Virus record (IMG/VR): IMGVR_UViG_3300032285_003393
Coordinates: 1-64,000 of that record
Length of the DNA: 64,000 bases
Reading direction: 5' to 3' (one strand)
Source of the DNA: a virus
The position numbers and the translations under genes were made by a program. The notes beneath the pieces were generated by a model, which saw nothing but the letters and a program-made list of their open reading frames with translations, did not search any database and was not told the DNA's origin. Shown here one piece after another: positions 857-28,702 of this stretch. Each line of letters begins with the position of its first letter. Positions within the stretch are counted from its first letter, which is position 1.

Positions 857-958
857 ATGGAAAAAGATATTTTTGGTTTTGCTGATGCAATTCAAATTGA
901 TAACTTAAGCGATGAACAAATAAATATTTTAGAAAAAATATTTGAAGATTTTGAATAG
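857..958 (+). CDS. 33-aa acidic peptide MEKDIFGFADAIQIDNLSDEQ...
   Basis: hand-translated; AAGGAG RBS. Confidence 0.55.
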   Translation: MEKDIFGFADAIQIDNLSDEQINILEKIFEDFE

Positions 959-1239
959 CTGAGATCGGTAAGTTTTTATGCATGAGAGTGCATAAAAATT
1001 TGCTGCGCCCCGCACTCGGGCGTGTCGCCTACGATGTGGGCTAAATCACAAAGCCCACGCTCCATATATTGAGACTACTGGCGAGTATACTAGACAGTAG
1101 CGATTTTGTGTGTTATAATTCCATTATAGAAAATTAAATAAGAAAAAAAAGTTAGTTAATCAACGGCGTGTCGCCTTGATTTTTGGCAGAAAGTCTGCTA
1201 AACTAACGATAGTTAAACAATAAAGAAAGGTGGTCTCAA

Positions 1240-1431
1240 ATGACTACACTAAATAAAACAAATATCGGTCTTGCTCTTGGAATTTCAGGAGCATTAGAAA
1301 ATCGTATTCTTCACGATTGGAATAATGGTGGTGCTAAATCCACTTACGGCTTATCCGTATGGCAACGAAAAGTGTTGCTAAAAGTTCTTATTAGTGAAAA
1401 TCCTAAGTGTGAATGTGTGGTGTGTTTATAA
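1240..1431 (+). CDS. hypothetical early protein
   Basis: ORF track; GAAAGGTGG RBS. Confidence 0.7.
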   Translation: MTTLNKTNIGLALGISGALENRILHDWNNGGAKSTYGLSVWQRKVLLKVLISENPKCECVVCL

Positions 1432-1637
1432 TGGCTACAATTAAAATTGGTGGATTAGGGCAAGAAATTTCTTGCTATTGCCCCGTGTGTTCCGTAAAAA
1501 TGTCCCATATGTGTATCGCTACACTAGGGACAGGAAAAACAATTCGCTATGAATGGCAATGTAATTCTTGCGAACTCTCTCTCAAATCAGATAGATTTGG
1601 AAATGCTAAATTGCTTAAAGAAATGGAAGTGCTATAA
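1431..1637 (+). CDS. small Zn-ribbon protein (CPVC...CNSC)
   Basis: ORF track 1413..1637; TAATG coupling gives start 1431. Confidence 0.65.
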   Translation: MATIKIGGLGQEISCYCPVCSVKMSHMCIATLGTGKTIRYEWQCNSCELSLKSDRFGNAKLLKEMEVL

Positions 1638-1831
1638 TGGCAACTATGACAGATAGATATATTCCCTCTTGGGAAAAAAAGTATGACCCTTGGGATTTAG
1701 AACCCGATACAACTTTAGATTTTGGCTATGATGAAGATGAAGAATCTGAAAATGCTAAAAATGAAGATGAACTATCTCTAGAAAATCTAGCAGATGAAGA
1801 ATTAGAATTAGAAGAGGATTTTGACCTATGA
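1637..1831 (+). CDS. highly acidic small protein
   Basis: ORF track; D/E-rich; TAATG coupling. Confidence 0.7.
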   Translation: MATMTDRYIPSWEKKYDPWDLEPDTTLDFGYDEDEESENAKNEDELSLENLADEELELEEDFDL

Positions 1832-2124
1832 CAATGAATAGACTAATAACATCACTAGTACAGTTAATGCTTTGGCTCCCGATTTTTTATTTTATAAAAT
1901 TAGAAATAAAAAGTAGAAAACAAAAAAACAAAAGCTAGATCGTGTAAAACAAAATGGTTGACATTTCAACTATTTTGCTGCGCCGTTGTCGGGCGTGTCG
2001 CCTACGATGTGGCTTGAATCACATGTGACTAATCTCACAAAGTCCGAAATGTCCGATTTGTTACCACCAATTTGTCAGACCCCCCTGCTATAATGGTGGC
2101 ATATCAAAAAGAAAGGACAATAAA

Positions 2125-2445
2125 ATGTCATTAGAAATTTTTAGAATAAATGAAAATGGTGCTGGTTGGGTATCATTAGAAAATGCTACAATAGCAGAAA
2201 AATTAGAATTAGAATTAGCATTGGCGTTTAATGCTGAGATGAAAGTCTTGTGCGTTACTTGCCATATTGAAATTCCTGCTGGAACAGGAAATGCTTGTGC
2301 TAAGCATAGTTCATATCGTGTTTGCCAAATTTGCGAATTGCCTCACGATGGTTTGTATTGCTCAAATTGTTTTACTGGTGAACGAGTGCGAGTCGGTGCT
2401 CGTAAGTTTGCTAAAGTAATTCGCTTACAAGAAATTATAAAATGA
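2125..2445 (+). CDS. Cys-rich hypothetical protein
   Basis: ORF track; RBS; downstream of promoter 2073. Confidence 0.75.
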   Translation: MSLEIFRINENGAGWVSLENATIAEKLELELALAFNAEMKVLCVTCHIEIPAGTGNACAKHSSYRVCQICELPHDGLYCSNCFTGERVRVGARKFAKVIRLQEIIK

Positions 2446-2459
2446 AAGGACTAACTAAA

Positions 2460-2576
2460 ATGGTTACTGAAAAAGTAAAACGAGTTCAAGAGTTGCGTCG
2501 TAGTAATGCAGCAACTGCAATTCCGTCAAAGAAAAAATATTCACGAAAAAGAAAATATAAAAATAAATTTGATTAG
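2460..2576 (+). CDS. 38-aa basic peptide (KKKYSRKRKYK)
   Basis: hand-translated; GAAAGGA RBS. Confidence 0.6.
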   Translation: MVTEKVKRVQELRRSNAATAIPSKKKYSRKRKYKNKFD

Positions 2577-2766
2577 CTTGCAGATCGCAAAAAAAACTGC
2601 GCCCCGTTCGGGCGTGTCGTACACAGGATTATCCACAGGGTTACGAATGTGAGATTAATCACAGCATTTGAGCGTCTCAAAATATGGAATTACTCGCTAG
2701 TAAGTAGAAAAATGTCAGTGGGTTATGTTATACTTACGGCATAACGAAAAAGAAAGAAGGTCTTAA

Positions 2767-2886
2767 ATGAACCTAGATGAATATAAGGCGTATGTTACCG
2801 AACAACGCAAAAAGTCAATGGCGGAAGCAATGTCAGTGCTATCTGCTACAATTACAGACAATAAAGAAAAGGAAGGTGCTAACTAA
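2767..2886 (+). CDS. 39-aa peptide, paralog of 444..536
   Basis: hand-translated; AGAAGG RBS; contains promoter 2831. Confidence 0.6.
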   Translation: MNLDEYKAYVTEQRKKSMAEAMSVLSATITDNKEKEGAN

Positions 2887-3095
2887 TGGCAACTAAATTA
2901 TACACAATAGAGGATTTACTAATTGGTAAAACCTATCGTTCTCGTTCCCGATTTTTTGAGGGTGAAATTATCTCCGCTGAAAAGCGTGAAGGCGTTTGGT
3001 ATGGCGATAATACCGAAGCCTATCTAATCGGAATAAACTACAAGGGTAGTATCCGCACTAAGTATGCGACTATCGCAGTTAAGGTTGGTGAGTAA
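2886..3095 (+). CDS. hypothetical early protein
   Basis: ORF track; TAATG coupling. Confidence 0.75.
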   Translation: MATKLYTIEDLLIGKTYRSRSRFFEGEIISAEKREGVWYGDNTEAYLIGINYKGSIRTKYATIAVKVGE

Positions 3096-3259
3096 TGAAT
3101 ACAGCAAATGAAATTGTAGAAATACAAGGCGTGTGGTGCGATTCCTGCGATAGTGCAGGTTTCGTAATGCTACACGAAAATGGTGATACACAAGTCCTTG
3201 CGTGTAATTGCGAGGATAAAGAAAATGAATATTTATTTTTTGGAAAGGAAAACAACTAA
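3095..3259 (+). CDS. 54-aa Zn-binding-like peptide (CDSC...CNC)
   Basis: hand-translated; TAATG coupling on both sides. Confidence 0.6.
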   Translation: MNTANEIVEIQGVWCDSCDSAGFVMLHENGDTQVLACNCEDKENEYLFFGKENN

Positions 3260-3417
3260 TGAAAAAAAATGTGTTGATTAGTTTTGTAACGGAAGCAGAT
3301 ACGGATTTAGAAGCCGTATTTAATCTTAATAAAATTCTGTATAAATTGTCAGATGAGGAATTATCTCAATTTAATGCGTTTGATGTAACTAATGTAGAGG
3401 GTGGGTATCTAGACTAA
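3259..3417 (+). CDS. 52-aa hypothetical protein
   Basis: hand-translated; TAATG coupling. Confidence 0.6.
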   Translation: MKKNVLISFVTEADTDLEAVFNLNKILYKLSDEELSQFNAFDVTNVEGGYLD

Positions 3418-3611
3418 TGATGACTCGCAAAGACTACGTTGAAGTAGCACGAATTCTAAATACTTATATGAAACTAAATAATGACAATGAATATCCTGCA
3501 CTGGTAGATGAATTTGAAGTTCATTTAGTAGAACCATTCATTGAAATGTTTGAAAAAGATAATCCAAATTTTAATGCAGATAAATTTTGGGAAGCGTGTT
3601 TTAGCGAATAA
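3417..3611 (+). CDS. conserved small phage protein (MTRKDY...DNPNF..DKF..AC)
   Basis: ORF track; recognisable phage family motif. Confidence 0.75.
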   Translation: MMTRKDYVEVARILNTYMKLNNDNEYPALVDEFEVHLVEPFIEMFEKDNPNFNADKFWEACFSE

Positions 3612-3775
3612 AAAAAAGATTTGCAGTTTGAAAAAGCTGCAAATTTTTGGCGCAGCGATGTGATCTAGATCATGTTACGAATGTGATATTAATCACCGAA
3701 AATAATCCCTAATTAACTTGATAATGTCAGCAGGATATGTTATACTTCCATTATTCACCAAACGAAAGGGTCAAT

Positions 3776-3961
3776 ATGTCCACTCAAACAACACACGAAA
3801 TTGCTTGCGATTTATATGAAATCTGCGGTAGTACAATTCTAGTAGAATCTGATGAATTAGATTTCTATGATGGTTATATGTGCCCAGAATGCTATGACCA
3901 ATCTGAGGACTATATCTGGGATGATTCTTTCCCTATGTCTCTAGAGTATGATGAAGGGTGA
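3776..3961 (+). CDS. acidic Cys-containing hypothetical protein
   Basis: ORF track 3737..3961; start after GAAAGGG RBS. Confidence 0.65.
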   Translation: MSTQTTHEIACDLYEICGSTILVESDELDFYDGYMCPECYDQSEDYIWDDSFPMSLEYDEG

Positions 3962-4102
3962 TATTTATCACACCCGCCCTGCGCCCCGTTCGGGCGTGTC
4001 GTTACGAATGTGAGATTTATCACTGGAAAATAGGGGCTTTTGGATTGAAAATGTCAGTGCAACCTGCTATAATTCCCATATCACCAAACGAAAGGACAAC
4101 TT

Positions 4103-4252
4103 ATGTCATGCAATATTTGCTATGCTAATCTCATGGGTCTATCTATGATTGATTCCAACCCGTCTACTATGTGCGATACCCATTATTTTGAGTGGGCTCA
4201 GGAAAAAATCTATAATGATTTAGATATGTCTACTGAGGATATGTACCTCTAG
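4103..4252 (+). CDS. 49-aa hypothetical peptide
   Basis: hand-translated; GAAAGGA RBS after promoter 4052. Confidence 0.55.
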   Translation: MSCNICYANLMGLSMIDSNPSTMCDTHYFEWAQEKIYNDLDMSTEDMYL

Positions 4253-4306
4253 TCTGTCAGTCCTATCTGCTATAATTACAACTCTCAACCCGAAAGAAGG
4301 AAAAAT

Positions 4307-4588
4307 ATGTCCGATATTGTAACCGCAATTAGAATTCAACAAGCAACTTCCGAAAGTCTACACGATGAAACAGTTATGGATACTGCTCGTGCCTTAATGC
4401 TAACATTAACAGGTAATGAAATGCCTAGCGATGAAGCAATTCACGCACTCTTTACTTATTCCGCATTACTTTCTGCTAATGTCGCAACTCGTATCACAAG
4501 TGTGTTGCTAACCGAAAGTCAATTTGATTCTATGTGTCAAGAAATTCAAGAATTTGATGATATGGAAAAGGGCGTGTTAGGTGACTAA
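4307..4588 (+). CDS. hypothetical protein
   Basis: ORF track; RBS; promoter 4255. Confidence 0.75.
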   Translation: MSDIVTAIRIQQATSESLHDETVMDTARALMLTLTGNEMPSDEAIHALFTYSALLSANVATRITSVLLTESQFDSMCQEIQEFDDMEKGVLGD

Positions 4589-5303
4589 ATTAAAACGCTC
4601 AAACGATAGAAAAGTGGCTAATGCCGTTTCGCCTAATGGTAAAACGGCTACCATTGCCAACACTTTCGGTCTGCCTGCAGGTAAAAATTATTCATGTCCT
4701 GGAGCCACTGCAACATGCGAAAGTGTGTGTTATGCAGGAAAACTAGAAAAATTATTCAAGGGTGTTAAGGCTAACCTCTTACACAATTGGGAATTACTTA
4801 AAGACGCAGACTATGAAACTATGGTTACACTACTTAATGAAATGATTATTGATTTCAAAAAGGATTGTGCTAAGAAAGACGCTCCATTGCTATTCCGCAT
4901 TCATTGGGACGGCGATTTCTTTAACGATACTTATTCATATGCATGGAAGCAAGTAATCATGGACAATTCCACCGTTCAATTTTGGGTTTATACTCGTGTT
5001 AAGTCTGCTGCATTAATGCTTAAGGATATCCCTAATCTTTCACTATATTATTCTACGGATGATGATAACGCAAATGTCGGGGCGGAATTAAAAACTCTTC
5101 ATGGAATACGCCTAGCATACCTAGGGAAGACATTCACCGCAACCGAAAGCAAGATGAAAGAATTAACTGGCAAGGTTGGTGCTAAGTGTCCTGAAAACAA
5201 TAAGCAAATTCCATTAATTTCACAAAACGGCTCCGCCTGCGTCTCGTGTGGTTTATGCGTGTACGGTAAAGCGGACATTAGATTTTCTGCGACTAAAAAA
5301 TAA
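4581..5303 (+). CDS. GP88-family (radical-SAM-like Fe-S) phage protein
   Basis: CPGAT..C..VCYA, FRIHWDGDF, WVYTR and C-terminal C..C..C motifs. Confidence 0.8.
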   Translation: MTKLKRSNDRKVANAVSPNGKTATIANTFGLPAGKNYSCPGATATCESVCYAGKLEKLFKGVKANLLHNWELLKDADYETMVTLLNEMIIDFKKDCAKKDAPLLFRIHWDGDFFNDTYSYAWKQVIMDNSTVQFWVYTRVKSAALMLKDIPNLSLYYSTDDDNANVGAELKTLHGIRLAYLGKTFTATESKMKELTGKVGAKCPENNKQIPLISQNGSACVSCGLCVYGKADIRFSATKK

Positions 5304-5313
5304 AGGGGATGAA

Positions 5314-5517
5314 ATGCGAAAGATAAAAAACGGAAATATATTTACTGTCATGATTGCGGACCTACTGGACGTGACTGATGATGTAGCCTTGCGTGTACAC
5401 AATTACATAGATGAAAACTATAATTGTGATTGGTCTGAAGCTGATGAAGAAGAAATTAAATTTTATGCATTCATGGCATATGAAGATTTAAACGAAGAAG
5501 TTAATTCAAGCTTTTAG
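5314..5517 (+). CDS. acidic hypothetical protein
   Basis: ORF track 5248..5517; start after AAGGGG. Confidence 0.6.
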   Translation: MRKIKNGNIFTVMIADLLDVTDDVALRVHNYIDENYNCDWSEADEEEIKFYAFMAYEDLNEEVNSSF

Positions 5518-5747
5518 TGTGCGGGTGAGAGAGCGGGCCCAGGATCTGCAAAGGTCCTGGGCCTGTATAAAATTTAATATGTGTGCATAAGTATGCAGGC
5601 TGCGCCCCGTTCGGGCGTGTCGTTTACGAATGTGACTAAAGTCACCGAACTTTTTGTCTTACGATATGGGATATACGGCGTGTCGGATTGAAAATGTCGG
5701 TGGGATTTGCTATAATTGCTCCATTCACCCAACGAAAGGAAAACTAA

Positions 5748-6245
5748 ATGGGACTAGATATGTATCTCCACGCTAAGAAATATGTGGAAAAAGTTAATTG
5801 GAAAAAGTTACAGGAGAATGATGAATTATCTTATGATTCTCCCGAAGCAGTTTATCCAAAGTTTAATGAGTTAATAACTCTTACTAATATGAATAATGTC
5901 GCAACAGATATTTATGGTGCGAGTATTGAAGTTACTTGTGCATATTGGCGTAAGGCTAATCAAATTCATAAATGGTTTGTAGATAATGTACAAAATGGAG
6001 AAGATGATTGTGATTCTTATTATGTATCGCAAGATAAACTAAAGGAATTGCTTACTACTTGCCGTCAAGCATTATTTACTAAAGACCCTAATTTAATCCC
6101 GCCATCGGCAGGTTTCTTTTTTGGGTCATATGATATTGACGAGTATTATTGGAACGATATCAAAAACACAATTAAGCAAATTGACCGAATTCTTAATTTG
6201 CCCGAATTGTCCCAATTATCCTTTTCATACCAAAGTTCTTGGTAA
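5748..6245 (+). CDS. conserved phage protein (MGLDMYL...YWRKANQIHKWF)
   Basis: ORF track; recognisable family motif; promoter 5695. Confidence 0.85.
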   Translation: MGLDMYLHAKKYVEKVNWKKLQENDELSYDSPEAVYPKFNELITLTNMNNVATDIYGASIEVTCAYWRKANQIHKWFVDNVQNGEDDCDSYYVSQDKLKELLTTCRQALFTKDPNLIPPSAGFFFGSYDIDEYYWNDIKNTIKQIDRILNLPELSQLSFSYQSSW

Positions 6246-6318
6246 GACCCCTGCAGGGGGGAATTTGTCAGACCCCCCTGCTATAATAGGACACTCAACA
6301 ACCCGAAAGGAAAAAACA

Positions 6319-6570
6319 ATGCACAACCTAGATACTAATGGATGGAATGAATTTCCATTCTCCGCACAGGGCTACAATTTTATTTCTAAAGTTGCCCCTA
6401 ACTCTCCGTTTATGTCACAAATTGCTCGCCTGCCTAAAGGAATTTTTGAGCAAATGAATAAGTCTGCAATTGCAGATTTAGTAGGTACAGGACTTACTCG
6501 TGATGAAGTGTTAAATAAACTTTCATTCATAAATGAAGGTGGCACTCACGCAGTAGTTGAATTAGCCTAG
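6319..6570 (+). CDS. hypothetical protein
   Basis: ORF track 6121..6570; start after promoter 6266 and GAAAGGA. Confidence 0.7.
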   Translation: MHNLDTNGWNEFPFSAQGYNFISKVAPNSPFMSQIARLPKGIFEQMNKSAIADLVGTGLTRDEVLNKLSFINEGGTHAVVELA

Positions 6571-6639
6571 CAAATAGGGTAGGGCTGATAAATGTCAGCC
6601 CTACCTGCTACAATTACTCTCCCGACCAAAGAAAGGCAA

Positions 6640-6855
6640 ATGCCAATGGAATACAATTATGTCCTAACTACTCACTATGACGGAAATTATTATTCTTCGC
6701 ATAGATTTACAGATGCACTAACAGCCGTTAATGCGTTTAACAAATGCGTAGATTGGGGAGATGCGAAAGAATACGCAACCTATAATCTACTAGAACCTAA
6801 TGGAAAAATGCACACACTTAATTTTTATAGAAATGGAGAAGTAAATGGGAAGTAA
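6640..6855 (+). CDS. hypothetical protein
   Basis: ORF track 6592..6855; start after promoter 6593 and GAAAGG. Confidence 0.7.
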   Translation: MPMEYNYVLTTHYDGNYYSSHRFTDALTAVNAFNKCVDWGDAKEYATYNLLEPNGKMHTLNFYRNGEVNGK

Positions 6856-7129
6856 TTTTGCAACAGAATTAGCGGATAACGATTTATTCCCTGATTTAAC
6901 TATGGAAGATGCTATTGCAATACACTTGCAAGGTAATCACTATCCACCCGTCCCCCGTTCAATGGTAAAGCCTTGCATGGAAGCAATACAAAACTACAAC
7001 GAAGGGTATCACAACGAACCCGTAGAATTGCCCGAAGGCGTATCATGGCGTGGAGATACTATTGCTCCATCGTGGGCAATTATTGAATCACACCACTTAG
7101 AAGCTTGGCTAGACCAAGACGAATTCTAA
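6845..7129 (+). CDS. conserved phage protein (HLQGNHYPPVP)
   Basis: ORF track; GGAG RBS. Confidence 0.8.
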   Translation: MGSNFATELADNDLFPDLTMEDAIAIHLQGNHYPPVPRSMVKPCMEAIQNYNEGYHNEPVELPEGVSWRGDTIAPSWAIIESHHLEAWLDQDEF

Positions 7130-7269
7130 GATCAAGATTAGCTAAGTGTGACGAAGGTCACACTTAGTTTATCTCAAATACTGAGATAGGGTTGGACAAA
7201 TGTCAGACCCAAATGCTATAATAAGACCCTAGTTAGCAAGTTGCTAATTATTTAATGAAAGGAAGCAAA

Positions 7270-7431
7270 ATGACCGCAAACGGAAAGACTTATCAAGTAG
7301 GGGATTTATTCACTACACAGAAGTCAAAGGTTACAGGAACTATCAAGGAGATTGTTCCGCAAGCATCTGGCTCGGTGCGTGTTAAACTTGAAGTTGATGG
7401 CGAAAATCGCTGGACTACTTTCAAGGCATAA
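7270..7431 (+). CDS. 53-aa small beta-barrel (SH3/KOW-like) protein, paralog of 8043..8210
   Basis: hand-translated TYQVGDLFTTQKSKVTGTI; GAAAGGA RBS. Confidence 0.7.
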   Translation: MTANGKTYQVGDLFTTQKSKVTGTIKEIVPQASGSVRVKLEVDGENRWTTFKA

Positions 7432-7524
7432 CTAAATAGTTATTCAGGGCGGGTCTGATAAATGTCAGACCCCCCTGCTATAATTACTCTCTCAAACAAA
7501 CCCAAACCCGAAAGAAGGAAATAA

Positions 7525-7941
7525 ATGTCAAGAGCAATTACAGTAAAGGTGGCAACACCAAAAGTAATCAAGGCTTTGGAAACAAAGTTGGAAACAATCA
7601 AGAAGTCTTATTCTGAGCAATCAGCAAATGAAGCAAAGTATCAAGAGGCTCGCACCGCTTGGGCAAAGGAAATTGGCAAGTGGGCTATGGAACACTTCTC
7701 AAAGGCTGAAAACATCAGAACAAATTATCGCAGTTGGAACAACACTCTCAATGTTGATTTTGACATCATCACTAAAGAAACTGACTTTCCTGTTGAGCCT
7801 GTAAAGGACTACGAGGAAATTGGTGGATACCAATACAAGGAAATAGTAGAGGAACTTACTAACGCCCTATCTATCCTTCGTATGACAGATGAGGAAACAG
7901 TAAATGCTTCTACAATGAAGCAGATTGCTAAGTATCTCTAA
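7525..7941 (+). CDS. hypothetical protein
   Basis: ORF track; promoter 7463 and RBS. Confidence 0.85.
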   Translation: MSRAITVKVATPKVIKALETKLETIKKSYSEQSANEAKYQEARTAWAKEIGKWAMEHFSKAENIRTNYRSWNNTLNVDFDIITKETDFPVEPVKDYEEIGGYQYKEIVEELTNALSILRMTDEETVNASTMKQIAKYL

Positions 7942-7983
7942 GTTTCCTACACGCCCCTAATGGTGGGGCATACAGGAATAAAT

Positions 7984-8010
7984 GACCTGAGCAAGTCTAT
8001 AAACTGCTCA
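7984..8010 (+). ncRNA. candidate H-type pseudoknot element, copy 1
   Basis: GAC-CTGAGCAA-GTC-TATAAAC-TGCTC. Confidence 0.5.
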
Positions 8011-8042
8011 CACACAAAACCCGAAAGAATAGGAAAATATAA

Positions 8043-8210
8043 ATGACACTAGGCGGATACACTTACCAAATCGGTGATTTATTCACAACAAGCAAGACAG
8101 GCGTTACAGGCAGAATTGAAAAGTTTGTGCCACAATCTAAAAATGTAACTCGTGTTATGTTGCGTTTGGCAAATAACCAAACACGATTTGCAATGGTAAA
8201 AACATACTAG
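8043..8210 (+). CDS. 55-aa small beta-barrel protein, paralog of 7270..7431
   Basis: hand-translated TYQIGDLFTTSKTGVTGRI; AGGA RBS. Confidence 0.7.
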   Translation: MTLGGYTYQIGDLFTTSKTGVTGRIEKFVPQSKNVTRVMLRLANNQTRFAMVKTY

Positions 8211-8259
8211 AATTGCAAGAACCAAAAAATTGGATTTAATCCAAAATCTTGGTAGCAAT

Positions 8260-8287
8260 AATCCTGAGCATGATTCAAAACTGCTCA
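8260..8287 (+). ncRNA. candidate H-type pseudoknot element, copy 2
   Basis: AATC-CTGAGCAT-GATT-CAAAAC-TGCTC. Confidence 0.5.
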
Positions 8288-8551
8288 AGCTTTAAATCCC
8301 CGCAAATGCGGGGCGCAGCCTGTGATCTAAATCACCTTACGAAGGGTTGACAAAGCCCCTGAGTTTACGATATACTGGAAGGCTATGGAGACCCTACTTA
8401 TCGTGCCAATTGTGATTTTACTCACACCACCTCTAACCCTGCTTGGGTTATACTTATTTATTAAAACTATCCGTCTCAAATAGTGGACGGACTGGACAAA
8501 TGTCAGTGCAATCTGTTATACTTAGCCTTAATCTAATAGAAAGAAGGAAAT

Positions 8552-9583
8552 ATGTCAAATCTAGCACATGCTCGTGAAATTGAAGATAACTCAGTTTCAT
8601 TCGCATTCGTTGATTCCCGCTCCAATCCCGCTTGGCACTCTGCTGCTAATAAAGTTTGGAATTCTGATGAAGAGACTCCTACAATTTCACAAATTATGGA
8701 TTCTGCTCATCTATCTAATTGGAATTTGCGTTTGGAAGATGTCGCACCAGCGTTTCCAAATCATAATTTCATCTCTAATTCTCACCTTGTTGTTCGTGAT
8801 AATCCTTTCAATGCTGGAGAAACTGATGTTCTCTCTGTTGTAGGTTCACGCTATAAGGTCGTGCAGAATGAAGAATTGTTTGCGTTTGCACAAAATCTTC
8901 ATGATTCTAACCCTGATGTCAAAATTGACTCGGCTGGTTCTTTCAAGAATGGTCGTGTTGTGTTTGGTACATGGACAGTTCCAAATACTTTGATTCTTGA
9001 CCCTAATGGTGCTAATGACCAAACCAATCTATACCTAGTTGTTTATACTAGCCATGATGGTTCGGTTGCTGTTCAGGCTGCAATTACACCTGTTCGTGTT
9101 CGTTGCCAAAACACTCTAAACTTTGCAATGTCTCGTGCTAAGCAAAGTTTCAAGATTCGCCATACCGCTACGGCAGAAGGTAAAATTGCCTCTGCTCGTG
9201 AGGCTCTTGGTTTATCTGTTGCATACTTTGACGAGTTCTCAAAGCAGGCTAACGAGTTATTTACTCGTGAAGTTACTAATGCTGAGTTCTCTAAGATTAT
9301 CAACACACTCTATCCTAAGCCTGAATTGGATAAAAAGGGTTCTCTAACTAAATGGGAAAATAAAGTTGTATTGCTTGATGAGTTGTACCATAACTCACCT
9401 ACCAATGCAAATATCAAGGGTACTGCATGGGGCGTTGTAAATGCTCTAACCGAACGCCTTGATTATTTCCGCACTGCTCGCAAGGGTGGAGAATCACTTA
9501 CTTATTCTGCAAGTGGTTTTGACCCTGTGATTACCGCAGAAAAAAATAAAATTGTTAAGCAAGTGTTAGCACTTACCGCTTAA
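8552..9583 (+). CDS. DUF932 / TIGR03299 phage-plasmid protein
   Basis: PAWH, VVGSRYKVVQN, SHDGS, TPVRVRCQNTL, IRHT, GTAWG motifs. Confidence 0.9.
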   Translation: MSNLAHAREIEDNSVSFAFVDSRSNPAWHSAANKVWNSDEETPTISQIMDSAHLSNWNLRLEDVAPAFPNHNFISNSHLVVRDNPFNAGETDVLSVVGSRYKVVQNEELFAFAQNLHDSNPDVKIDSAGSFKNGRVVFGTWTVPNTLILDPNGANDQTNLYLVVYTSHDGSVAVQAAITPVRVRCQNTLNFAMSRAKQSFKIRHTATAEGKIASAREALGLSVAYFDEFSKQANELFTREVTNAEFSKIINTLYPKPELDKKGSLTKWENKVVLLDELYHNSPTNANIKGTAWGVVNALTERLDYFRTARKGGESLTYSASGFDPVITAEKNKIVKQVLALTA

Positions 9584-9586
9584 TAA

Positions 9587-9615
9587 TAATTCCTGAGCAT
9601 GAATTAAAACTGCTC
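9587..9615 (+). ncRNA. candidate H-type pseudoknot element, copy 3
   Basis: TAATTC-CTGAGCAT-GAATTA-AAAC-TGCTC, 5 nt before tRNA-Asp. Confidence 0.5.
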
Positions 9616-9620
9616 CGCAT

Positions 9621-9692
9621 GGAATCGTAGTTCAATGGTTAGAATGCAGGCTTGTCACGCCTGAGACGAGAGTTCAATTCTCTTCGGTTCCG
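9621..9692 (+). tRNA. tRNA-Asp(GTC)
   Basis: cloverleaf GGAATCG/CGGTTCC; anticodon arm CAGGC-TTGTCAC-GCCTG; TTCAA T-loop. Confidence 0.9.
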
Positions 9693-10020
9693 CTTTATTT
9701 TTATCCCATTGTTTTATGTTATTGCAATTGGCACATAAAATTTGATAACCATTTGGCAAATCTTGTTTAATTAAATATCTGTAAAATTTTACACCTGAAA
9801 ATTTTTGACCACCTAATTCTTTTCTTTCTTGTGATCCATTGTCTTCTATGTGATCAAGCTGCAAAGCTCTTATATCGTCAAAACCACATATAGCACACTC
9901 TTTGCCATAACGTTCTAGAATGATTTGCTTATCTTGCATTCTTCTAGCTGTTGTATCTGCTCTTAGCTTCTCCCGATTTTTTTCACGATATCTTGCTTGA
10001 GCTTCTTTTTTATTATTCAT
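9655..10020 (-). CDS. HNH endonuclease
   Basis: CAICG...LQLDH...LCANCN; leaderless -10 upstream. Confidence 0.85.
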   Translation of the reverse strand: MNNKKEAQARYREKNREKLRADTTARRMQDKQIILERYGKECAICGFDDIRALQLDHIEDNGSQERKELGGQKFSGVKFYRYLIKQDLPNGYQILCANCNNIKQWDKNKAEPKRIELSSQA

Positions 10021-10198
10021 ATATAAATTGTATCACTGGGGTGCAACAATGCATAAATAAACGGGGCGCAGATATGATCAATATCACAATTACGATAGGG
10101 GTATATTTCCCCTGAAATTGGAATTACGATTGGACAAATGTCAGTCGGGCATGCTATAATTTACCCATATTATCCCTACCACTAGAAAGTAATCATAT

Positions 10199-10624
10199 AT
10201 GTCTAATAGAACTAAAGGTTATATGGGCCAAATTGTAGATGGCAAGAAGCTTGCTGAATTGGCCAATAAAATATATTCAATTCAATATAATGATAATGCC
10301 ACTAAATGCACAGTAGATAATTTGTTATTTATTGAATTAAATGAAAAGAACGTATTTGGGGATTCTAAGTATGCTCTTGTATGTTCTGAAGGTGTAGGTT
10401 GGGAACAAGATGAATATGGATGTCTTGAAGTCCCCACAAATGTTGGACAAATGGGTTTATGGAATGGGCATGTATTTATTTCAGTAGATGTCGTAAAGTC
10501 TTGTTTAACTGATCAATATGAAGATATCTCTGACTATATTCGTGTCTTTGGTTCCCGCCTTGATTCTAATTGTTGGTTGTGGCAGAACAAAATGTCAGTG
10601 GCATCTGCTACAATATCCCTCTAA
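10199..10624 (+). CDS. hypothetical protein
   Basis: ORF track; promoter 10139. Confidence 0.8.
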   Translation: MSNRTKGYMGQIVDGKKLAELANKIYSIQYNDNATKCTVDNLLFIELNEKNVFGDSKYALVCSEGVGWEQDEYGCLEVPTNVGQMGLWNGHVFISVDVVKSCLTDQYEDISDYIRVFGSRLDSNCWLWQNKMSVASATISL

Positions 10625-11705: not shown

Positions 11706-12334
11706 TGGATCTGCTAAGCTGGACTAAATATACATATGTATGTGACCCTGATGAATGTGATTCTCTAATTGAGTATACATGTTCAGATAAGTTTGGATTC
11801 CCGTCTGGAAGTGTGACTAACATCACATGCCCGTGTGGTCGGAAACCCAACCTTTTGTCAGTGGAAGATGCTACAATTACACCTATTAACCAACCCGAAC
11901 AGAAAGAAGAAAAAATGGAAACAATGTACAACTCAATCCAGCAGGAACTTGACTTGACTAACGGTAACGAAATTACTGAACTCAAGAATAAGTTGTCTGC
12001 ATCAGAAAATCTAGTAGAGAGATATCGTGATATGGTTTCAAGTGCTAATTCGCAACTTGGAAAAATCATTGATAATCTTACAGAAGATTATTGGTATTCA
12101 TCATCAGTTGATAAGTCTGAGATTTTAACTGAACTCTGCGACATCCTTGAACATAATCCAGTTAAAGAGATTTCTTTCACTGCGACTATTTCCTTTAATG
12201 GTCGTCTAGAGATTCCATTGGATGAGGCAGAAGACTTTGACCTTACCGCCGTCCTTGAAGATGCTTATGTAGATATCAACAACGGCAATGTCGTTATTGA
12301 TGGCTATGAACTCTATGATGCAGAGGAGTGCTAA
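11705..12334 (+). CDS. hypothetical protein with N-terminal Zn motif; possible internal start at 11915
   Basis: ORF track; internal promoter 11856 and purine-rich RBS. Confidence 0.75.
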   Translation: MDLLSWTKYTYVCDPDECDSLIEYTCSDKFGFPSGSVTNITCPCGRKPNLLSVEDATITPINQPEQKEEKMETMYNSIQQELDLTNGNEITELKNKLSASENLVERYRDMVSSANSQLGKIIDNLTEDYWYSSSVDKSEILTELCDILEHNPVKEISFTATISFNGRLEIPLDEAEDFDLTAVLEDAYVDINNGNVVIDGYELYDAEEC

Positions 12335-12534: not shown

Positions 12535-12707
12535 TGGACAAAGCTAAAGCGATCATTGAATATATGAATATACATCTAATTAGTTTGGAGCAGGATTTGG
12601 AACAAATTGATTATGTAAATGCTCATCATTTTTATAAGGTCAAGCAAGCAGAAATTGAGAATACCAAGCATTTAATGTCAGTGGTAGAGGATATAATGGC
12701 CTCATGA
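12534..12707 (+). CDS. 57-aa hypothetical protein
   Basis: hand-translated; TAATG/ATGA coupling; contains promoter 12676. Confidence 0.6.
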   Translation: MDKAKAIIEYMNIHLISLEQDLEQIDYVNAHHFYKVKQAEIENTKHLMSVVEDIMAS

Positions 12708-22627: not shown

Positions 22628-22897
22628 TTAATCAGGAAGACCTTTCGGTGTGGAGACATATTTGATCCCTTCTATTTCGCACGGTACTCCATAAGACATA
22701 ATCAAATTTCTACATAATAGAAGATAGTCCATGATATCTACTCTTCTATCAACTTCATACTGCATGATATTTTCTTCATAAACAGTTAAAGCTAAGTAAT
22801 TTGGCCTTGCCCTAATATCTAGTTTGAAATCTTTTACAGGCTTTTTTATCTCTCTTATCTTTTTAGCCATCTCTAAGTTATAAAAAATTTTTGCCAT
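22628..22897 (-). CDS. hypothetical protein
   Basis: ORF track. Confidence 0.75.
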   Translation of the reverse strand: MAKIFYNLEMAKKIREIKKPVKDFKLDIRARPNYLALTVYEENIMQYEVDRRVDIMDYLLLCRNLIMSYGVPCEIEGIKYVSTPKGLPD

Positions 22898-23198
22898 GTA
22901 TTTTCCTCAACTTCGCCCACGTTTCTTTATCTTTGTGGGAATTATTTAATTTATCCGTGCGACCTATGTTAAGGTAGATTCCTCCCCATACGCCTCTCTC
23001 TTTGTCCTTTACACCTTCTTTATAGCACATCTTGACAACTGGGCATGATAAACAAACTTGATCTGTAGTATTTGCCAAGATCTTATCGTTTTCATAGTCA
23101 TCATAAAACCAGTTTATAGGCATGTTTTGACATGCTGCTAGATGATACCATTTGACATCTTCTTCATCAATCCCTAGGTGTTTAAGTATGTTTGACAT
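22878..23198 (-). CDS. whiB: WhiB-family Fe-S transcription factor
   Basis: W...AAC...C..CPV...C...GVWGG. Confidence 0.9.
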   Translation of the reverse strand: MSNILKHLGIDEEDVKWYHLAACQNMPINWFYDDYENDKILANTTDQVCLSCPVVKMCYKEGVKDKERGVWGGIYLNIGRTDKLNNSHKDKETWAKLRKIHGKNFL

Positions 23199-27504: not shown

Positions 27505-27554
27505 TTAATTTCTCCTTTTAAGGTATTCCCTTTACTTATATTATACAGTAATTG

Positions 27555-27636
27555 TGCCCATAATCAGACTTGAACTGATACGATTTTATTCGGAAGATTT
27601 TAAGTCTTCTGTGTCTGCCGATTCCACCATACGGGC
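27555..27636 (-). tRNA. tRNA-Leu(TAA)
   Basis: GCCCGTA stem; GAAGA-CTTAAAA-TCTTC; long variable arm. Confidence 0.9.
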
Positions 27637-27637
27637 G

Positions 27638-27709
27638 TGTCCCCAGCAAGGATTGCACTTGCGACCCAATGGTTAAAAGCCATTTGCTCTACTTCTGAGC
27701 TATAGGGAC
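27638..27709 (-). tRNA. tRNA-Lys(TTT)
   Basis: AATGG-CTTTTAA-CCATT; atypical T-loop TGCAATC. Confidence 0.85.
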
Positions 27710-27719
27710 TTGCATATTG

Positions 27720-27790
27720 CTCTCTCGTCTAGATTTGAACTAAAACTAGAGGATTCAAAGTCCCCTGTGCTGCCATTACACCACGAGAGA
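27720..27790 (-). tRNA. tRNA-Gln(TTG)
   Basis: GGGGA-CTTTGAA-TCCTC. Confidence 0.9.
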
Positions 27791-27794
27791 ATAG

Positions 27795-27870
27795 CCTCCG
27801 TGACAGGGGTTGAACCTGCATGTATCCATTAACCTTTCAAGTGGGTAGAAACCACAGGGTATACACGGAG
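27795..27870 (-). tRNA. atypical D-arm-less tRNA-like RNA (TCT in loop, Arg-like)
   Basis: CTCCGTG/CACGGAG acceptor stem; GCAGG-TTCAACC-CCTGT T-arm; GTGG-TTTCTAC-CCAC; no D-arm. Confidence 0.6.
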
Positions 27871-27874
27871 AAAA

Positions 27875-28192
27875 TTATTTTATAAAAGATTTATATCTTT
27901 TAAAATTTCCTCTTTCCATTGTTCTTATTTTATGACAATTTGAACAAACTATCTCACATTTATTAATTTCTGACAAAATTAATACCCAAGATCTAGTACT
28001 CCCAGAAATTGCTTTTGCTATTTCAAATTTTTTTTCATACTGCGGTAAATGATCAAACTCTAAAACTCTTGGATCTTTGAGATTGCAATCAGTGCAACAT
28101 TTATCAGACAGATATTCCCAAAGATTATTATGGTTTCTATCTCTAATCTTTTGCTGACTTTTATACAGATCTTCTTTATTTTTATAAGGCAT
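27875..28192 (-). CDS. HNH endonuclease inside the tRNA array
   Basis: C.DC...LEFDH...KCEIVCSNCH. Confidence 0.85.
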   Translation of the reverse strand: MPYKNKEDLYKSQQKIRDRNHNNLWEYLSDKCCTDCNLKDPRVLEFDHLPQYEKKFEIAKAISGSTRSWVLILSEINKCEIVCSNCHKIRTMERGNFKRYKSFIK

Positions 28193-28233
28193 AAGGTTAG
28201 TATACCATATTCTAACCCTAAATCATTTTATAG

Positions 28234-28320
28234 CGGAAGATACAGGATTTGAACCTGTGGTAAGTTTTACCCTACGATCAGTTAGCAACCGATTGCTTTA
28301 AGCCACTCAGCCAATCTTCC
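28234..28320 (-). tRNA. tRNA-Ser(GCT)
   Basis: ATCGG-TTGCTAA-CTGAT; long variable arm. Confidence 0.9.
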
Positions 28321-28321
28321 A

Positions 28322-28396
28322 TGGAGCCTCGTATCCGATTTGAACGGATGACCCTCGCTTTACAAGAGCGATGCTCTACCACTGAGCTAACAAGGC
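28322..28396 (-). tRNA. tRNA-Thr(TGT)
   Basis: TCGCT-CTTGTAA-AGCGA; encoded CCA. Confidence 0.92.
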
Positions 28397-28397
28397 T

Positions 28398-28471
28398 TGG
28401 AGCGGATGATGGGAATTGAACCCACCCCTTCTGCTTGGAAGGCAGAGGCACTACCAATATGCAACATCCGC
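28398..28471 (-). tRNA. tRNA-Gly(TCC)
   Basis: TCTGC-CTTCCAA-GCAGA; encoded CCA. Confidence 0.92.
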
Positions 28472-28475
28472 ATTG

Positions 28476-28547
28476 CACCCCCAGAGAGAATTGAACTCTC
28501 TTCAACAAGATGAAAGCCTGTTATCCTAACCAATAGACGATGGGGGC
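28476..28547 (-). tRNA. tRNA-Glu(TTC)
   Basis: ACAGG-CTTTCAT-CTTGT. Confidence 0.9.
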
Positions 28548-28551
28548 ATAG

Positions 28552-28626
28552 TCCGACAGGCTGGATTTGAACCAGCGATACATACCTTATAAGAGTACTT
28601 CCAAAACCAAGCTAGGATACTGTCGG
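28552..28626 (-). tRNA. tRNA-Ile(TAT)
   Basis: CCGACAG/CTGTCGG stem; GTACT-CTTATAA-GGTAT. Confidence 0.8.
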
Positions 28627-28630
28627 TTAG

Positions 28631-28702
28631 CTCTCCTACCAAGATTTGAACTTAGAATAAGCGATTAACAGTCGCTTGTGTTGCCGATTACACCATAGGA
28701 GA
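28631..28702 (-). tRNA. tRNA-Asn(GTT)
   Basis: AGCGA-CTGTTAA-TCGCT. Confidence 0.9.

Follow-up and report, generated by a model that had tools for sequence, protein, structure and literature searches.

Organization of the early cassettes

In an uncultured lake actinobacteriophage of ~100 kb, the gaps between small early genes are occupied by repeated terminator-plus-promoter cassettes. Nine were recognized, eight listed in a preliminary description of the window (the whole 64,000-nt stretch analyzed, whose coordinates are used here) and one immediately beyond the window start; those in the window lie on the plus strand. Cassette 1 (958-1239) opens with a terminator-like hairpin (966-1005; dG -20.6 kcal/mol, z -8.0), followed by the tag CTGCGCC (box 1; 1003-1009), a WhiA-like box (box 2; 1017-1027) and an imperfect CRP-like box (1035-1050). 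As originally described, it is without the TGTCRG promoter (TGTCAG box) and has instead a sigma-70-type TAGACA-17-TATAAT promoter (1091-1119); a further WhiA-like box (1165-1173) lies in its leader. Cassette 2 (1939-2124) comprises a hairpin with a U-run (1950-1977; dG -11.6, z -5.1), tag (1978-1984), WhiA-like box (1990-2000), imperfect and perfect CRP-like boxes (2007-2022 and 2024-2039) and promoter (2073-2094). In cassette 3 (2577-2766) the tag (2597-2603) and WhiA-like box (2609-2619) precede a DnaA-type box, TTATCCACA (2629-2637), TTACGA (2641-2646), a CRP-like box (2648-2663), TTGAGCGTCTCA (2668-2679), the palindrome TTACT-N4-AGTAA (2690-2703) and the promoter (2713-2734), and the part from CRP-like box through promoter is conserved in 39 distinct sequences from relatives.

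Cassette 4 (3612-3775) has a terminator-like hairpin (3615-3648; dG -16.8, z -4.8), the tag in inverted and shortened form (GGCGCAG, 3649-3655), an imperfect palindrome (3659-3674), TTACGA (3675-3680), a CRP-like box (3682-3696) and the promoter (3725-3746). A CRP-like box (3958-3972) spans the stop codon of the gene upstream of cassette 5 (3957-4102), which continues with tag (3979-3985), WhiA-like box (3991-4001), TTACGA (4002-4007), a further CRP-like box (4009-4023) and promoter (4052-4073). Cassette 6 (5518-5747) contains a GC-rich hairpin (5533-5566; dG -30.6, z -6.5), tag (5600-5606), WhiA-like box (5612-5622), TTACGA (5624-5629 and 5659-5664), CRP-like box (5631-5645) and promoter (5695-5716), plus a second WhiA-like box (5677-5685) placed 2 nt 5' of a -35-like TTGAAA. 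Cassette 7 (8211-8551) carries a small GC hairpin (8298-8313), inverted tag (8312-8318), CRP-like box (8321-8335), TTACGA (8337-8342 and 8365-8370), a sigma-70-type promoter TTGACA-18-TATACT (8347-8376), a hydrophobic mini-ORF of 32 codons (8385-8483) that contains a CRP-like box (8411-8426), and the promoter at 8501-8522. Cassette 8 (10021-10198) has an inverted tag (10065-10071), an imperfect CRP-like box (~10073-10088), TTACGA (10090-10095 and 10124-10129) and a promoter (10139-10160); it lacks a WhiA-like box and any clear hairpin (fold z -0.2). In the ninth cassette (genome 101368-101529) box 2 is inverted and the CRP-like site lies between the two GC boxes.

Lighter plus-strand units consist of a CRP-like box and promoter. 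At 69-134 the box (69-84) lies within a gene end and the promoter at 113-134, positions 1-123 being the terminal-repeat copy of genome 101581-101703; at 7140-7222 the box (7147-7162) lies in a hairpin 62 nt 5' of the -10 element of the promoter (7201-7222). In a further plus-strand pair, at 11812-11877, both the CRP-like box (11812-11827) and the promoter (11856-11877) are in coding sequence, with 52 nt to the -10 element.

A recurring order of elements had been described. Hairpin, tag, WhiA-like box, TTACGA and CRP-like box follow one another in full in cassettes 1, 2, 3, 5 and 6 only, whereas cassettes 4, 7 and 8 have an inverted tag and are the three of nine from which the WhiA-like box is missing. 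The first hairpins look like intrinsic terminators; those of cassettes 1, 2, 4, 6 and 9 have z of -3 to -8, and a U-run follows four of them.

Distribution and chance level of the motifs

Every motif of the preliminary description was located at the coordinates given there, and all except the single DnaA box exceeded chance, as estimated from dinucleotide-preserving shuffles. The WhiA-like word CGGGCGTGTCG has 5 exact copies (0.06 expected), TGTGA-N6-TCAC 17 strand hits (0.5 expected), the promoter TGTCRG-N8-GYTAYAAT 17 copies, exclusively on the plus strand (0.23 expected), and CTGCGCCCCG, of which CTGCGCC is the core, four forward and two inverted copies (0.22 expected). Parts of the cassettes are nearly all non-coding in the early region, 13,987 nt of which 21% is non-coding: 9 of 12 CRP-like sites, all 8 GGCGTGTC boxes, all 7 copies of the 9-mer TGCGCCCCG and all 9 forward TTACGA. 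Elsewhere in the genome (87.6 kb) the CRP-like site, the GGCGTGTC box and the 9-mer number 0, 1 and 0, and the TGTCRG type of promoter does not recur, so the objection that the motifs might be equally common in coding DNA fails. The DnaA box, although present at 2629 as described, does not exceed the chance level of this genome (p = 0.21) and is a regular cassette part only in relatives.

Alignment of the cassettes bore out the view that sub-motifs are kept while spacers diverge, with common motif blocks amid unlike spacers and a mean column identity of 35%. A near-identical stretch of ~35 nt in cassettes 3, 5 and 6 would suit recent duplications without function, an explanation of negligible probability given that motifs are kept where spacers differ and that 80 divergent relatives retain the parts.

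CRP-like and WhiA-like boxes

Among perfect CRP-like boxes, 12 of 13 sit 42-105 nt 5' of the next plus-strand promoter, as cis-regulatory sites would, and TGTGA-N6-TCACA stands 42, 51-52, 62 or 72 nt 5' of the -10 element, in steps of ~10 nt. The box is present in 80 of 80 related loci, where 258 of 321 distinct sites are perfect and the palindromes keep their arms while their centres vary. Of 27 sequence clusters, 21 place the box 42, 51-53, 61-62 or 72 nt from the -10 element, and within clusters the spacing shifts by ~10-nt steps. Helical phasing (Rayleigh R 0.66, period 10.3-10.5 nt) was matched by 0 of 5000 random sets, a statistic resting on ~27 clusters that are not fully independent since relatives share ancestry. 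The word agrees with the actinobacterial Crp/GlxR consensus (PMC10187061), and its spacing fits an activator site of the class-I CRP type. The very first early promoter, which presumably fires before any phage protein exists, already has such a box at 72 nt.

The reverse complement of CGGGCGTGTCG is the published mycobacterial WhiA/WhiB2 site: the M. tuberculosis WhiA motif from ChIP-seq and IDAP-seq is GACACGCC, that of Minch CGACACGCCGn, and that of M. smegmatis WhiB2 cGACACGc (PMC13473873). In the 80 related loci CGGGCGTGTCG is the top non-promoter word, the box occurs in 74, and loci without the exact 9-mer retain AGACACGCC. Over 369 distinct contexts the family consensus is C-GACACGCC-(G/C)-(G/T)-A, and the core has 516 copies against at most 59 for any one-letter variant. 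Some boxes adjoin a -35-like hexamer at 2 nt and others lie further upstream; WhiA sites normally occur on either strand and at varying distances from the -35 element (PMC10243135). Arrays of up to three occur in steps of ~42 nt, often directly 3' of a stop codon. Many of the boxes that precede TTGACA lack a -10 element 17 nt downstream, so these are not simple activator sites. Host WhiA is the putative binder of the box. The phage itself encodes a WhiB-like protein (22878-23198, minus strand; PF02467, 37.3 bits, E 4e-10), a possible partner of host WhiA, whose gene lies among minus-strand genes away from the cassettes.

It had been suggested that the sites form a decoy array, and replicating phage DNA, with 8 WhiA-like and ~13 CRP-like boxes per genome copy, might titrate host WhiA, CRP and DnaA and so shut down host division and metabolism, WhiA/WhiB being regulators of division and replication genes in Mycobacterium (PMC13473873). 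This is very unlikely to be their main role, as a sponge would need neither a promoter 3' of nearly every box nor a fixed helical phase, and the boxes are confined to the early region; titration could still be a side effect.

The tag and possible phage-encoded binders

Core CTGCGCC occurs once per cassette and nowhere else, inverted in three of nine, and the reported independent inversion of CTGCGCCCCG is seen at 8309 and 10062. In the closest relative, L001, GGGGCCCCCGC replaces CTGCGCC as a set at matching cassettes. CTGCGCCCCG was therefore rejected as a host transcription-factor site kept across phages: CTGCGCC is a tag private to the lineage. TTACGA follows the direction of transcription in nine of nine.

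A private tag, one per cassette and swapped as a set, fits a binder co-evolving with its sites, and together with the strand-fixed TTACGA could mean that the sites are operators of phage regulators, early-made or virion-borne, that time delayed-early genes, host likeness being convergent or incidental. Nearly all early proteins are unrecognisable, so a binder of any of the sites could be among them. No DNA-binding Pfam domain was found in ~57 early proteins, nor a CRP-type HTH, WYL or WhiA domain in the phage genome. Such regulators are unlikely: the CRP-like and WhiA-like words are invariant though phage proteins are only 40-80% identical, the CRP-like box is already at the first early promoter, and boxes upstream of promoters rather than over them are in the wrong place for a repressor.

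Strong hairpins, strand-locked TTACGA and a linear box followed by a hairpin, which recalls nut sites, might instead indicate signals for processing, antitermination or stability in early RNA made by read-through. That reading is highly improbable: 27% of WhiA-like boxes and three of nine tags are inverted, the CRP-like boxes are palindromic, a stem formed by box 1 and box 2 does not surpass shuffled sequence (z -1.3 to -2.4), and an Rfam search matched tRNAs only.

Relatives and recombination

The comparison with relatives supported the earlier idea of recombination anchors. L001 has a chimeric cassette, the 5' half of cassette 1 joined to the 3' half of cassette 3 with the switch at the CRP-like box, and homology with relatives begins at 2640-2669 in 57 alignments and at 3990 (cassette 5) in 22. 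Other relatives carry two inserts of ~740 nt, each flanked on both sides by the WhiA-like box in the form AAC-GGCGTGTC-GGCTTGAC. A 276-nt insert has as its boundary a repeat of 40 nt comprising ribosome-binding site and start codon. Gene order is highly variable among the 80 loci. As to the host, homologues of GP88 (386 records) are from Mycobacterium and Streptomyces phages only.

Cassette-bounded inserts, the chimera and shuffled gene order would also be expected if the cassettes were mainly PeSL-like recombination seams, with factor-like words kept unbound as shared homology. This is quite unlikely, as homology explains neither the 10-nt phasing to the -10 element, nor the sharp peak on one 8-mer that is an experimentally defined site, nor palindromes with kept arms and varying centres, and the cassettes are no more alike within a genome (0.403) than between genomes (0.405).

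Proposed role of the cassettes

Drawing on the observed anatomy, conservation, phasing, motif identity and recombination junctions, the cassettes are probably transcription-unit boundaries that couple early genes to host regulators and, like the PeSLs of T4-type phages, double as seams for recombination; which proteins bind the sites, and to what effect, we infer from sequence. The hairpin would close the upstream unit, and the private tag would lead into a control region of short sites matching operators of conserved actinobacterial regulators. Last in line would be the early promoter of this family, with a strong ribosome-binding site behind it. Host RNA polymerase would use these promoters directly after DNA entry, assisted in class-I-like manner by host CRP/GlxR on one helix face, ~62-64, 72-74 or 82-84 nt 5' of the start, while host WhiA, probably with a WhiB-type partner, would occupy the CGACACGCC boxes. 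If so, early expression would track host cAMP and cell-division state. With identical parts of 20-45 nt present at many boundaries, homologous recombination among them may add, delete and reorder early genes. For the proposed promoter integrating host signals, motif identity and geometry are favorable, whereas input from DnaA amounts to one box, and from DNA damage to the PafBC likeness given below, with no LexA-like box in the early region.

Comparison with known systems

Nine phage promoters fit TGTCRGTG-N8-TAnnnT strictly and 21 loosely, all on the plus strand; we take this to be the consensus of PafBC-dependent (RecA-NDp) actinobacterial promoters. In contrast to these, 13 combine the motif with a -35-like hexamer and a TG-extended -10 element, so that the phage promoters may simply be strong promoters of the housekeeping sigma factor. 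With class I CRP-dependent promoters (E. coli CAP) and with actinobacterial Crp/GlxR sites the cassettes share the upstream TGTGA-N6-TCACA at positions about one helical turn apart, but phage box centres lie ~2 nt further upstream than for CAP, taking the start as 7 nt after the -10 element, and the phage promoter has the unusual TGTCAG box.

WhiA/WhiB promoters of Streptomyces and Mycobacterium (PMC10243135; PMC13473873) resemble the phage boxes in the extended consensus, CGACACGCC(G), which is identical and lies 5' of promoters in either orientation, in some copies 2 nt from a -35-like hexamer; the phage also has its WhiB-like gene. They differ in that the phage boxes form phage-borne arrays, frequently follow a stop codon directly and in many cases have no recognisable -10 element downstream. 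The PeSLs (promoter-early stem-loops) of T4-type phages, composite cassettes of terminator and early promoter behind modular shuffling (Arbiol 2010, PMC2839356; Comeau 2014, PMC4122927), likewise recur between early genes that are small and variable and have a stem-loop terminator ahead of the early promoter, and in both systems indel and gene-swap junctions of related phages fall in the repeated cassette. The present cassettes belong to another phage group and host phylum. At 120-340 nt they are much longer, with an array of regulator-type sites and a private tag between hairpin and promoter, and their copies have short blocks in common rather than a whole conserved unit.

Composite cassettes among the early genes

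The gaps between the early genes of this phage contain real, conserved and composite cassettes, made up of a putative terminator, a private tag, regulator-type sites and a promoter. The IMG/VR record is 101,703 bp long with about 36% G+C, has direct terminal repeats and is rated complete; the window is its first 64 kb, and the genome ends overlap over 123 nt. Small plus-strand genes run from about 97.3 kb across the terminal repeat to about 15 kb, and the remainder is on the minus strand, with genes that include RecA, a DnaB-type helicase, primase and ThyX. Nine cassettes are spread among 39 small early genes, eight in the window (about 958-10198, plus strand) and an extra one at genome positions 101368-101529, just before the window start, in which the WhiA-like box (box 2) is inverted.

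The motifs named in the preliminary description are all in place and far above chance, and its placing of them in intergenic DNA was borne out by counts in the 13,987-nt early region, which is 21% non-coding: 9 of 12 CRP-like boxes (TGTGA-N6-TCACA), 8/8 copies of GGCGTGTC, 7/7 of TGCGCCCCG and 9/9 of forward TTACGA are in non-coding DNA. The other 87.6 kb holds a single GGCGTGTC and no CRP-like box, TGCGCCCCG or promoter of the cassette type. Alignment of the cassettes showed that blocks are kept and spacers are unlike, with a mean column identity of 35%. The order of elements described as recurrent is complete in cassettes 1, 2, 3, 5 and 6, but only partial in cassettes 4, 7 and 8.

A simple terminator scan was uninformative (8 matches versus 6.9 expected), and hairpins were therefore folded directly. 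The first hairpins of cassettes 1, 2, 4, 6 and 9 gave energies of -11.6 to -30.6 kcal/mol, with z (fold energy against shuffled sequence) of -3 to -8; four of the five have an A-run/stem/U-run form, promoters follow downstream, and these strong hairpins look terminator-like. In cassettes 3, 5, 7 and 8 the hairpin is weak or absent. An Rfam search returned tRNAs only. Directly before cassette 8 (window 9621-10020), a tRNA-Asp and the end of a 121-aa ORF on the minus strand overlap; this ORF has EndoVII/HNH matches below threshold, and nine further tRNA genes are found at 27554-28702.

Early-region gene content and order are highly variable and shuffled across the 80 related loci compared, with 18 of the 39 early genes having a homologue in fewer than 10 of these relatives. 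Five promoter-type motifs are inside coding sequence (window 2831-2852, 10593-10614, 11365, 11856-11877 and 12676-12697), each close to the 3' end of one gene and directly ahead of the next, and thus some early genes carry the promoter of the following gene. Three paralogue-like early gene pairs share N-termini (e.g., MMTRKDYV) and tblastn cross-matches: 3417-3611 with positions 6194-6367 of the related locus L081, 444-536 with 2767-2886, and 7270-7431 with 8043-8210. Within gene 3417-3611, a 39-nt stretch (about 3549-3587) matches a hypothetical gene of Pelagibacter phage HTVC033P at 97% identity and has no other near match in 50,697 phage records. In cassette 7 (8347-8483), TTGACA-18-TATACT comes close to the sigma-70-type promoter consensus, and the hydrophobic mini-ORF of 32 codons after it has no homologue in the 80 relatives. 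A role of the cassettes as an iteron replication origin is unlikely, given parts dispersed over nine gaps and 12 kb and a single DnaA box.

Relatives and likely host

All 386 cultured-phage records that hold homologues of the GP88 protein (4581-5303) are Mycobacterium or Streptomyces phages, and an actinobacterial host is therefore likely. The 80 loci were fetched by means of GP88 (76-86% protein identity), and one scan found more than 590 related contigs. The phage also encodes a WhiB-like protein, for which no relative was found among genome_contigs. A ThyX search of the same collection matched only contigs of 7-110 kb (three of them 85-110 kb), at 57-68% identity to the phage protein (L083-L087). 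These are binned in MAGs labelled Saccharibacteria, Bifidobacterium, cyanobacterium, Bacteroidales and Cyclobacteriaceae, none of which has WhiA, and the contigs are probably those of related phages that were mis-binned.

Regulator-type sites of the cassettes

CRP-like boxes number 13 distinct TGTGA-N6-TCAC sites in this phage, 8 with both arms perfect, and are present in 80/80 loci at about 5.5 per locus, where 258 of 321 distinct sites are perfect TGTGA-N6-TCACA. Measured from the centre of the site to where the next -10 element begins, the spacing has peaks at 42, 51-53, 61-62 and 72 nt; the modal value is 51-53, 61-62 or 72 nt in 21 of 27 sequence clusters, and variants within clusters differ by about 10 nt. 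This phasing (Rayleigh R = 0.66 at 10.3-10.5 nt) was matched by none of 5000 random sets. The spacings in this phage are 42, 51, 51, 52, 52, 62, 72, 72 and 73 nt, and also 57, 98 and 102 nt, with the first early promoter (TGTCAG, genome 100489) having its CRP-like box 72 nt away.

The second regulator-type site, box 2 (CGGGCGTGTCG), belongs to a family in which GGCGTGTCG is the commonest repeated word of the 80 loci after the promoter and ribosome-binding site, with 352 forward and 127 inverted copies in 74 loci. The family consensus on the opposite strand is C-GACACGCC-(G/C)-(G/T)-A, also written CGACACGCC(G/C); the GACACGCC core occurs in 516 copies, and any one-letter variant in at most 59. 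In M. tuberculosis, the WhiA motif by ChIP-seq and in-vitro IDAP-seq is GACACGCC, WhiB2 has the same motif, and an earlier form of it is CGACACGCCGn; the M. smegmatis form is cGACACGc (PMC13473873). Streptomyces WhiA uses a GACAC core on either strand, its distance to the -35 element varies, and WhiB forms the bridge to sigma (PMC10243135). Read at the sequence level, box 2 is the exact WhiA consensus word, and chance agreement over the 9-mer is very unlikely because the word was chosen without reference to WhiA. The WhiA-like box at 5677 lies 2 nt ahead of TTGAAA-17-TATAAT, and in 19 distinct promoters of relatives the box is just upstream of the -35 element; most copies of box plus TTGACA have no -10 downstream. 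This TTGACA was ruled out as a promoter -35 for most copies, with no -10 found at 17 nt, as was box 2 itself as the -10 element of an ECF-sigma promoter, with stop-codon A/T but no -35-like signal at 16-18 nt upstream. In three loci that have no exact GGCGTGTCG (L056, L070, L077), and in L046, AGACACGCCC stands in place (four times), with the GACACGCC core kept and a flanking base changed. A search of one literature collection found no paper combining WhiA, WhiB, promoter and phage genome.

The PafBC (RecA-NDp) promoter pattern is TGTCRGTG-N8-TAnnnT, which replaces the -35 element. Nine strict PafBC-type matches were found here, -35-like hexamers and a TG-extended -10 additionally accompany many of the 19 promoters, and no WYL protein was found in the phage. 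TTACGA is always oriented with transcription. The DnaA box TTATCCACA noted in one cassette is present, but its occurrence in the early region is not above chance (p = 0.21). In relatives it occurs at about 3 per 10 kb, or per locus; 67 of 80 loci have it, pairs spaced by 23-24 nt are common, and in some relatives it stands at the position of the WhiA-like box, after a GC hairpin. A phylogenetic footprint of cassette 3 revealed two more conserved words between the CRP-like box and the promoter: TGAGCGTCTCA (2668-2679; 59/80 loci) and the palindrome TTACT-N4-AGTAA (2690-2703; 60/80 loci), whose arms are kept while its centre varies.

A private GC tag and word avoidance

Box 1 (CTGCGCCCCG), placed by the preliminary description within the stack of host-factor sites, is of another kind and nearly missing from the 80 relatives (2 matches). 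Within this genome of 101.6 kb its core, CTGCGCC/GGCGCAG, is confined to the nine cassettes, with exactly one copy in each (six forward, three inverted), and the tag accounts for 9 of the 16 GCGC in the genome (108 expected). The closest relative, L001, has matching cassettes with GGGGCCCCCGC in place of the tag in seven or eight cassettes, and in 57 of 81 loci some GC-rich 8-mer is repeated at least 4 times outside box 2 and the promoter, the most frequent such repeat being GCCCGCA, the arm of a GC hairpin. That close relatives differ in the tag as a whole set suggests either copying from one cassette to another or a partner specific to the lineage. Cassettes of one genome are not homogenised in general, as ungapped identity is 0.403 within versus 0.405 between genomes and the tag alone behaves so. 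Selection for a hairpin between box 1 and box 2 found no support (z -1.3 to -2.4; the L001 tag does not pair with box 2).

TCGA (336 expected), CCGG and CGCG (108 expected each) are absent genome-wide, and ACGT is at one third of its expected count. TCGA is common in L001 and three other relatives (L010, L029, L064), and absent or rare in L003 and L002; the missing words look like lineage-specific restriction-site avoidance. GATC is no candidate for a cassette tag, its density of 1.22 per kb in the early region being lower than the 3.05 per kb of the remaining genome. Neither a C5 methylase nor a clear HNH nuclease was found in the phage to explain the tag.

Probable recombination seams

The suggestion that genes are shuffled at the cassettes was supported, in small numbers, by a chimeric cassette of L001 and by cassette-bounded inserts in relatives. 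The front of the L001 cassette (3080-3350) corresponds to our cassette 1 in its stop codon, hairpin and box 2, and its back corresponds to our cassette 3 from the CRP-like box through TGAGCGTCTCA and the palindrome to the promoter and ribosome-binding site; alignment with both placed the switch point at the CRP-like box. Between the two matched halves our phage has 1.6 kb containing six genes and cassette 2. Homology with relatives starts at 2640-2669 (57 alignments) and at 3990 (22 alignments), and therefore the part from CRP-like box to promoter moves with the downstream gene and the part comprising hairpin, tag and WhiA-like box does not. Six clean indels were found among near-identical relatives, and four of these affect the early region: AAC-GGCGTGTC-GGCTTGAC stands at both edges of two inserts about 740 nt long, and a 276-nt insert has at its boundaries a repeated 40-nt stretch with the ribosome-binding site and start codon. 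Thus, repeated cassette or ribosome-binding-site sequence bounds 3 of the 4 early-region indels, a small number.

Proposed function and significance

Neither CRP-type HTH, WYL nor WhiA domains were found in the phage, nor any DNA-binding Pfam domain in about 57 early proteins, and host factors are therefore the simplest candidate binders, most of all for the first promoter. On the reading that we favour, the cassette would be a transcription-unit boundary, its upstream region may recruit CRP/GlxR of the host and also WhiA, the latter together with a WhiB partner, and its repeated parts could double as recombination seams; binding and effect are here deduced from sequence. A decoy array that soaks up host regulators, as the preliminary description had offered, is not needed in addition to this boundary, recruitment and seam function. 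A broader proposal, which we regard as rather improbable, is that an abundant group of lake phages uses the cassettes as multi-input promoters to read host WhiA/WhiB division state and cAMP, and that a phage-specific activity which binds or nicks DNA acts on the tag and drives cassette recombination; if true, regulation and gene shuffling would be combined in one element. New here are the agreement of box 2 with the exact WhiA consensus, the junctions that locate the seam in the modules of the WhiA and CRP boxes, and the GCGC-bearing tag present once in every cassette.

The related phages are numerous in lakes (more than 590 contigs), and their hosts are probably the low-GC actinobacteria that dominate fresh water, a group in which gene regulation has, to our knowledge, hardly been studied. 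If the boxes are real operators, phage genomes would catalogue the use of WhiA, CRP and perhaps DnaA sites in such hosts, and a lytic-type phage would couple its first genes to host division and nutritional state. The idea of repeated terminator-promoter units as gene-exchange seams, known from the promoter-early stem-loop (PeSL) elements of T4-type phages, is extended to a second, unrelated phage group, in which the cassettes show which sub-module makes the seam.

Comparison with known systems

Both the TGTGA-N6-TCACA site and the one-helical-face placement of class I CRP-dependent promoters are matched by the putative CRP sites here. In WhiA/WhiB-dependent promoters the GACAC core is extended to GACACGCC in Mycobacterium, and eight such boxes, all non-coding, are found in this phage. 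The junctions match, in small numbers, the PeSL pattern (PMC4122927; PMC4503421). As in PeSLs, a terminator-like stem-loop lies upstream of the early promoter (here in cassettes 1, 2, 4, 6 and 9), repeats are located between small variable ORFs of a hyperplastic region, and indel or swap junctions fall within the cassette (again in small numbers). PeSLs, however, are near-identical copies in T4-type myoviruses, whereas the cassettes belong to an actinophage lineage and share only motif blocks (35% column identity); they are PeSL-like in their working and not members of the PeSL family.
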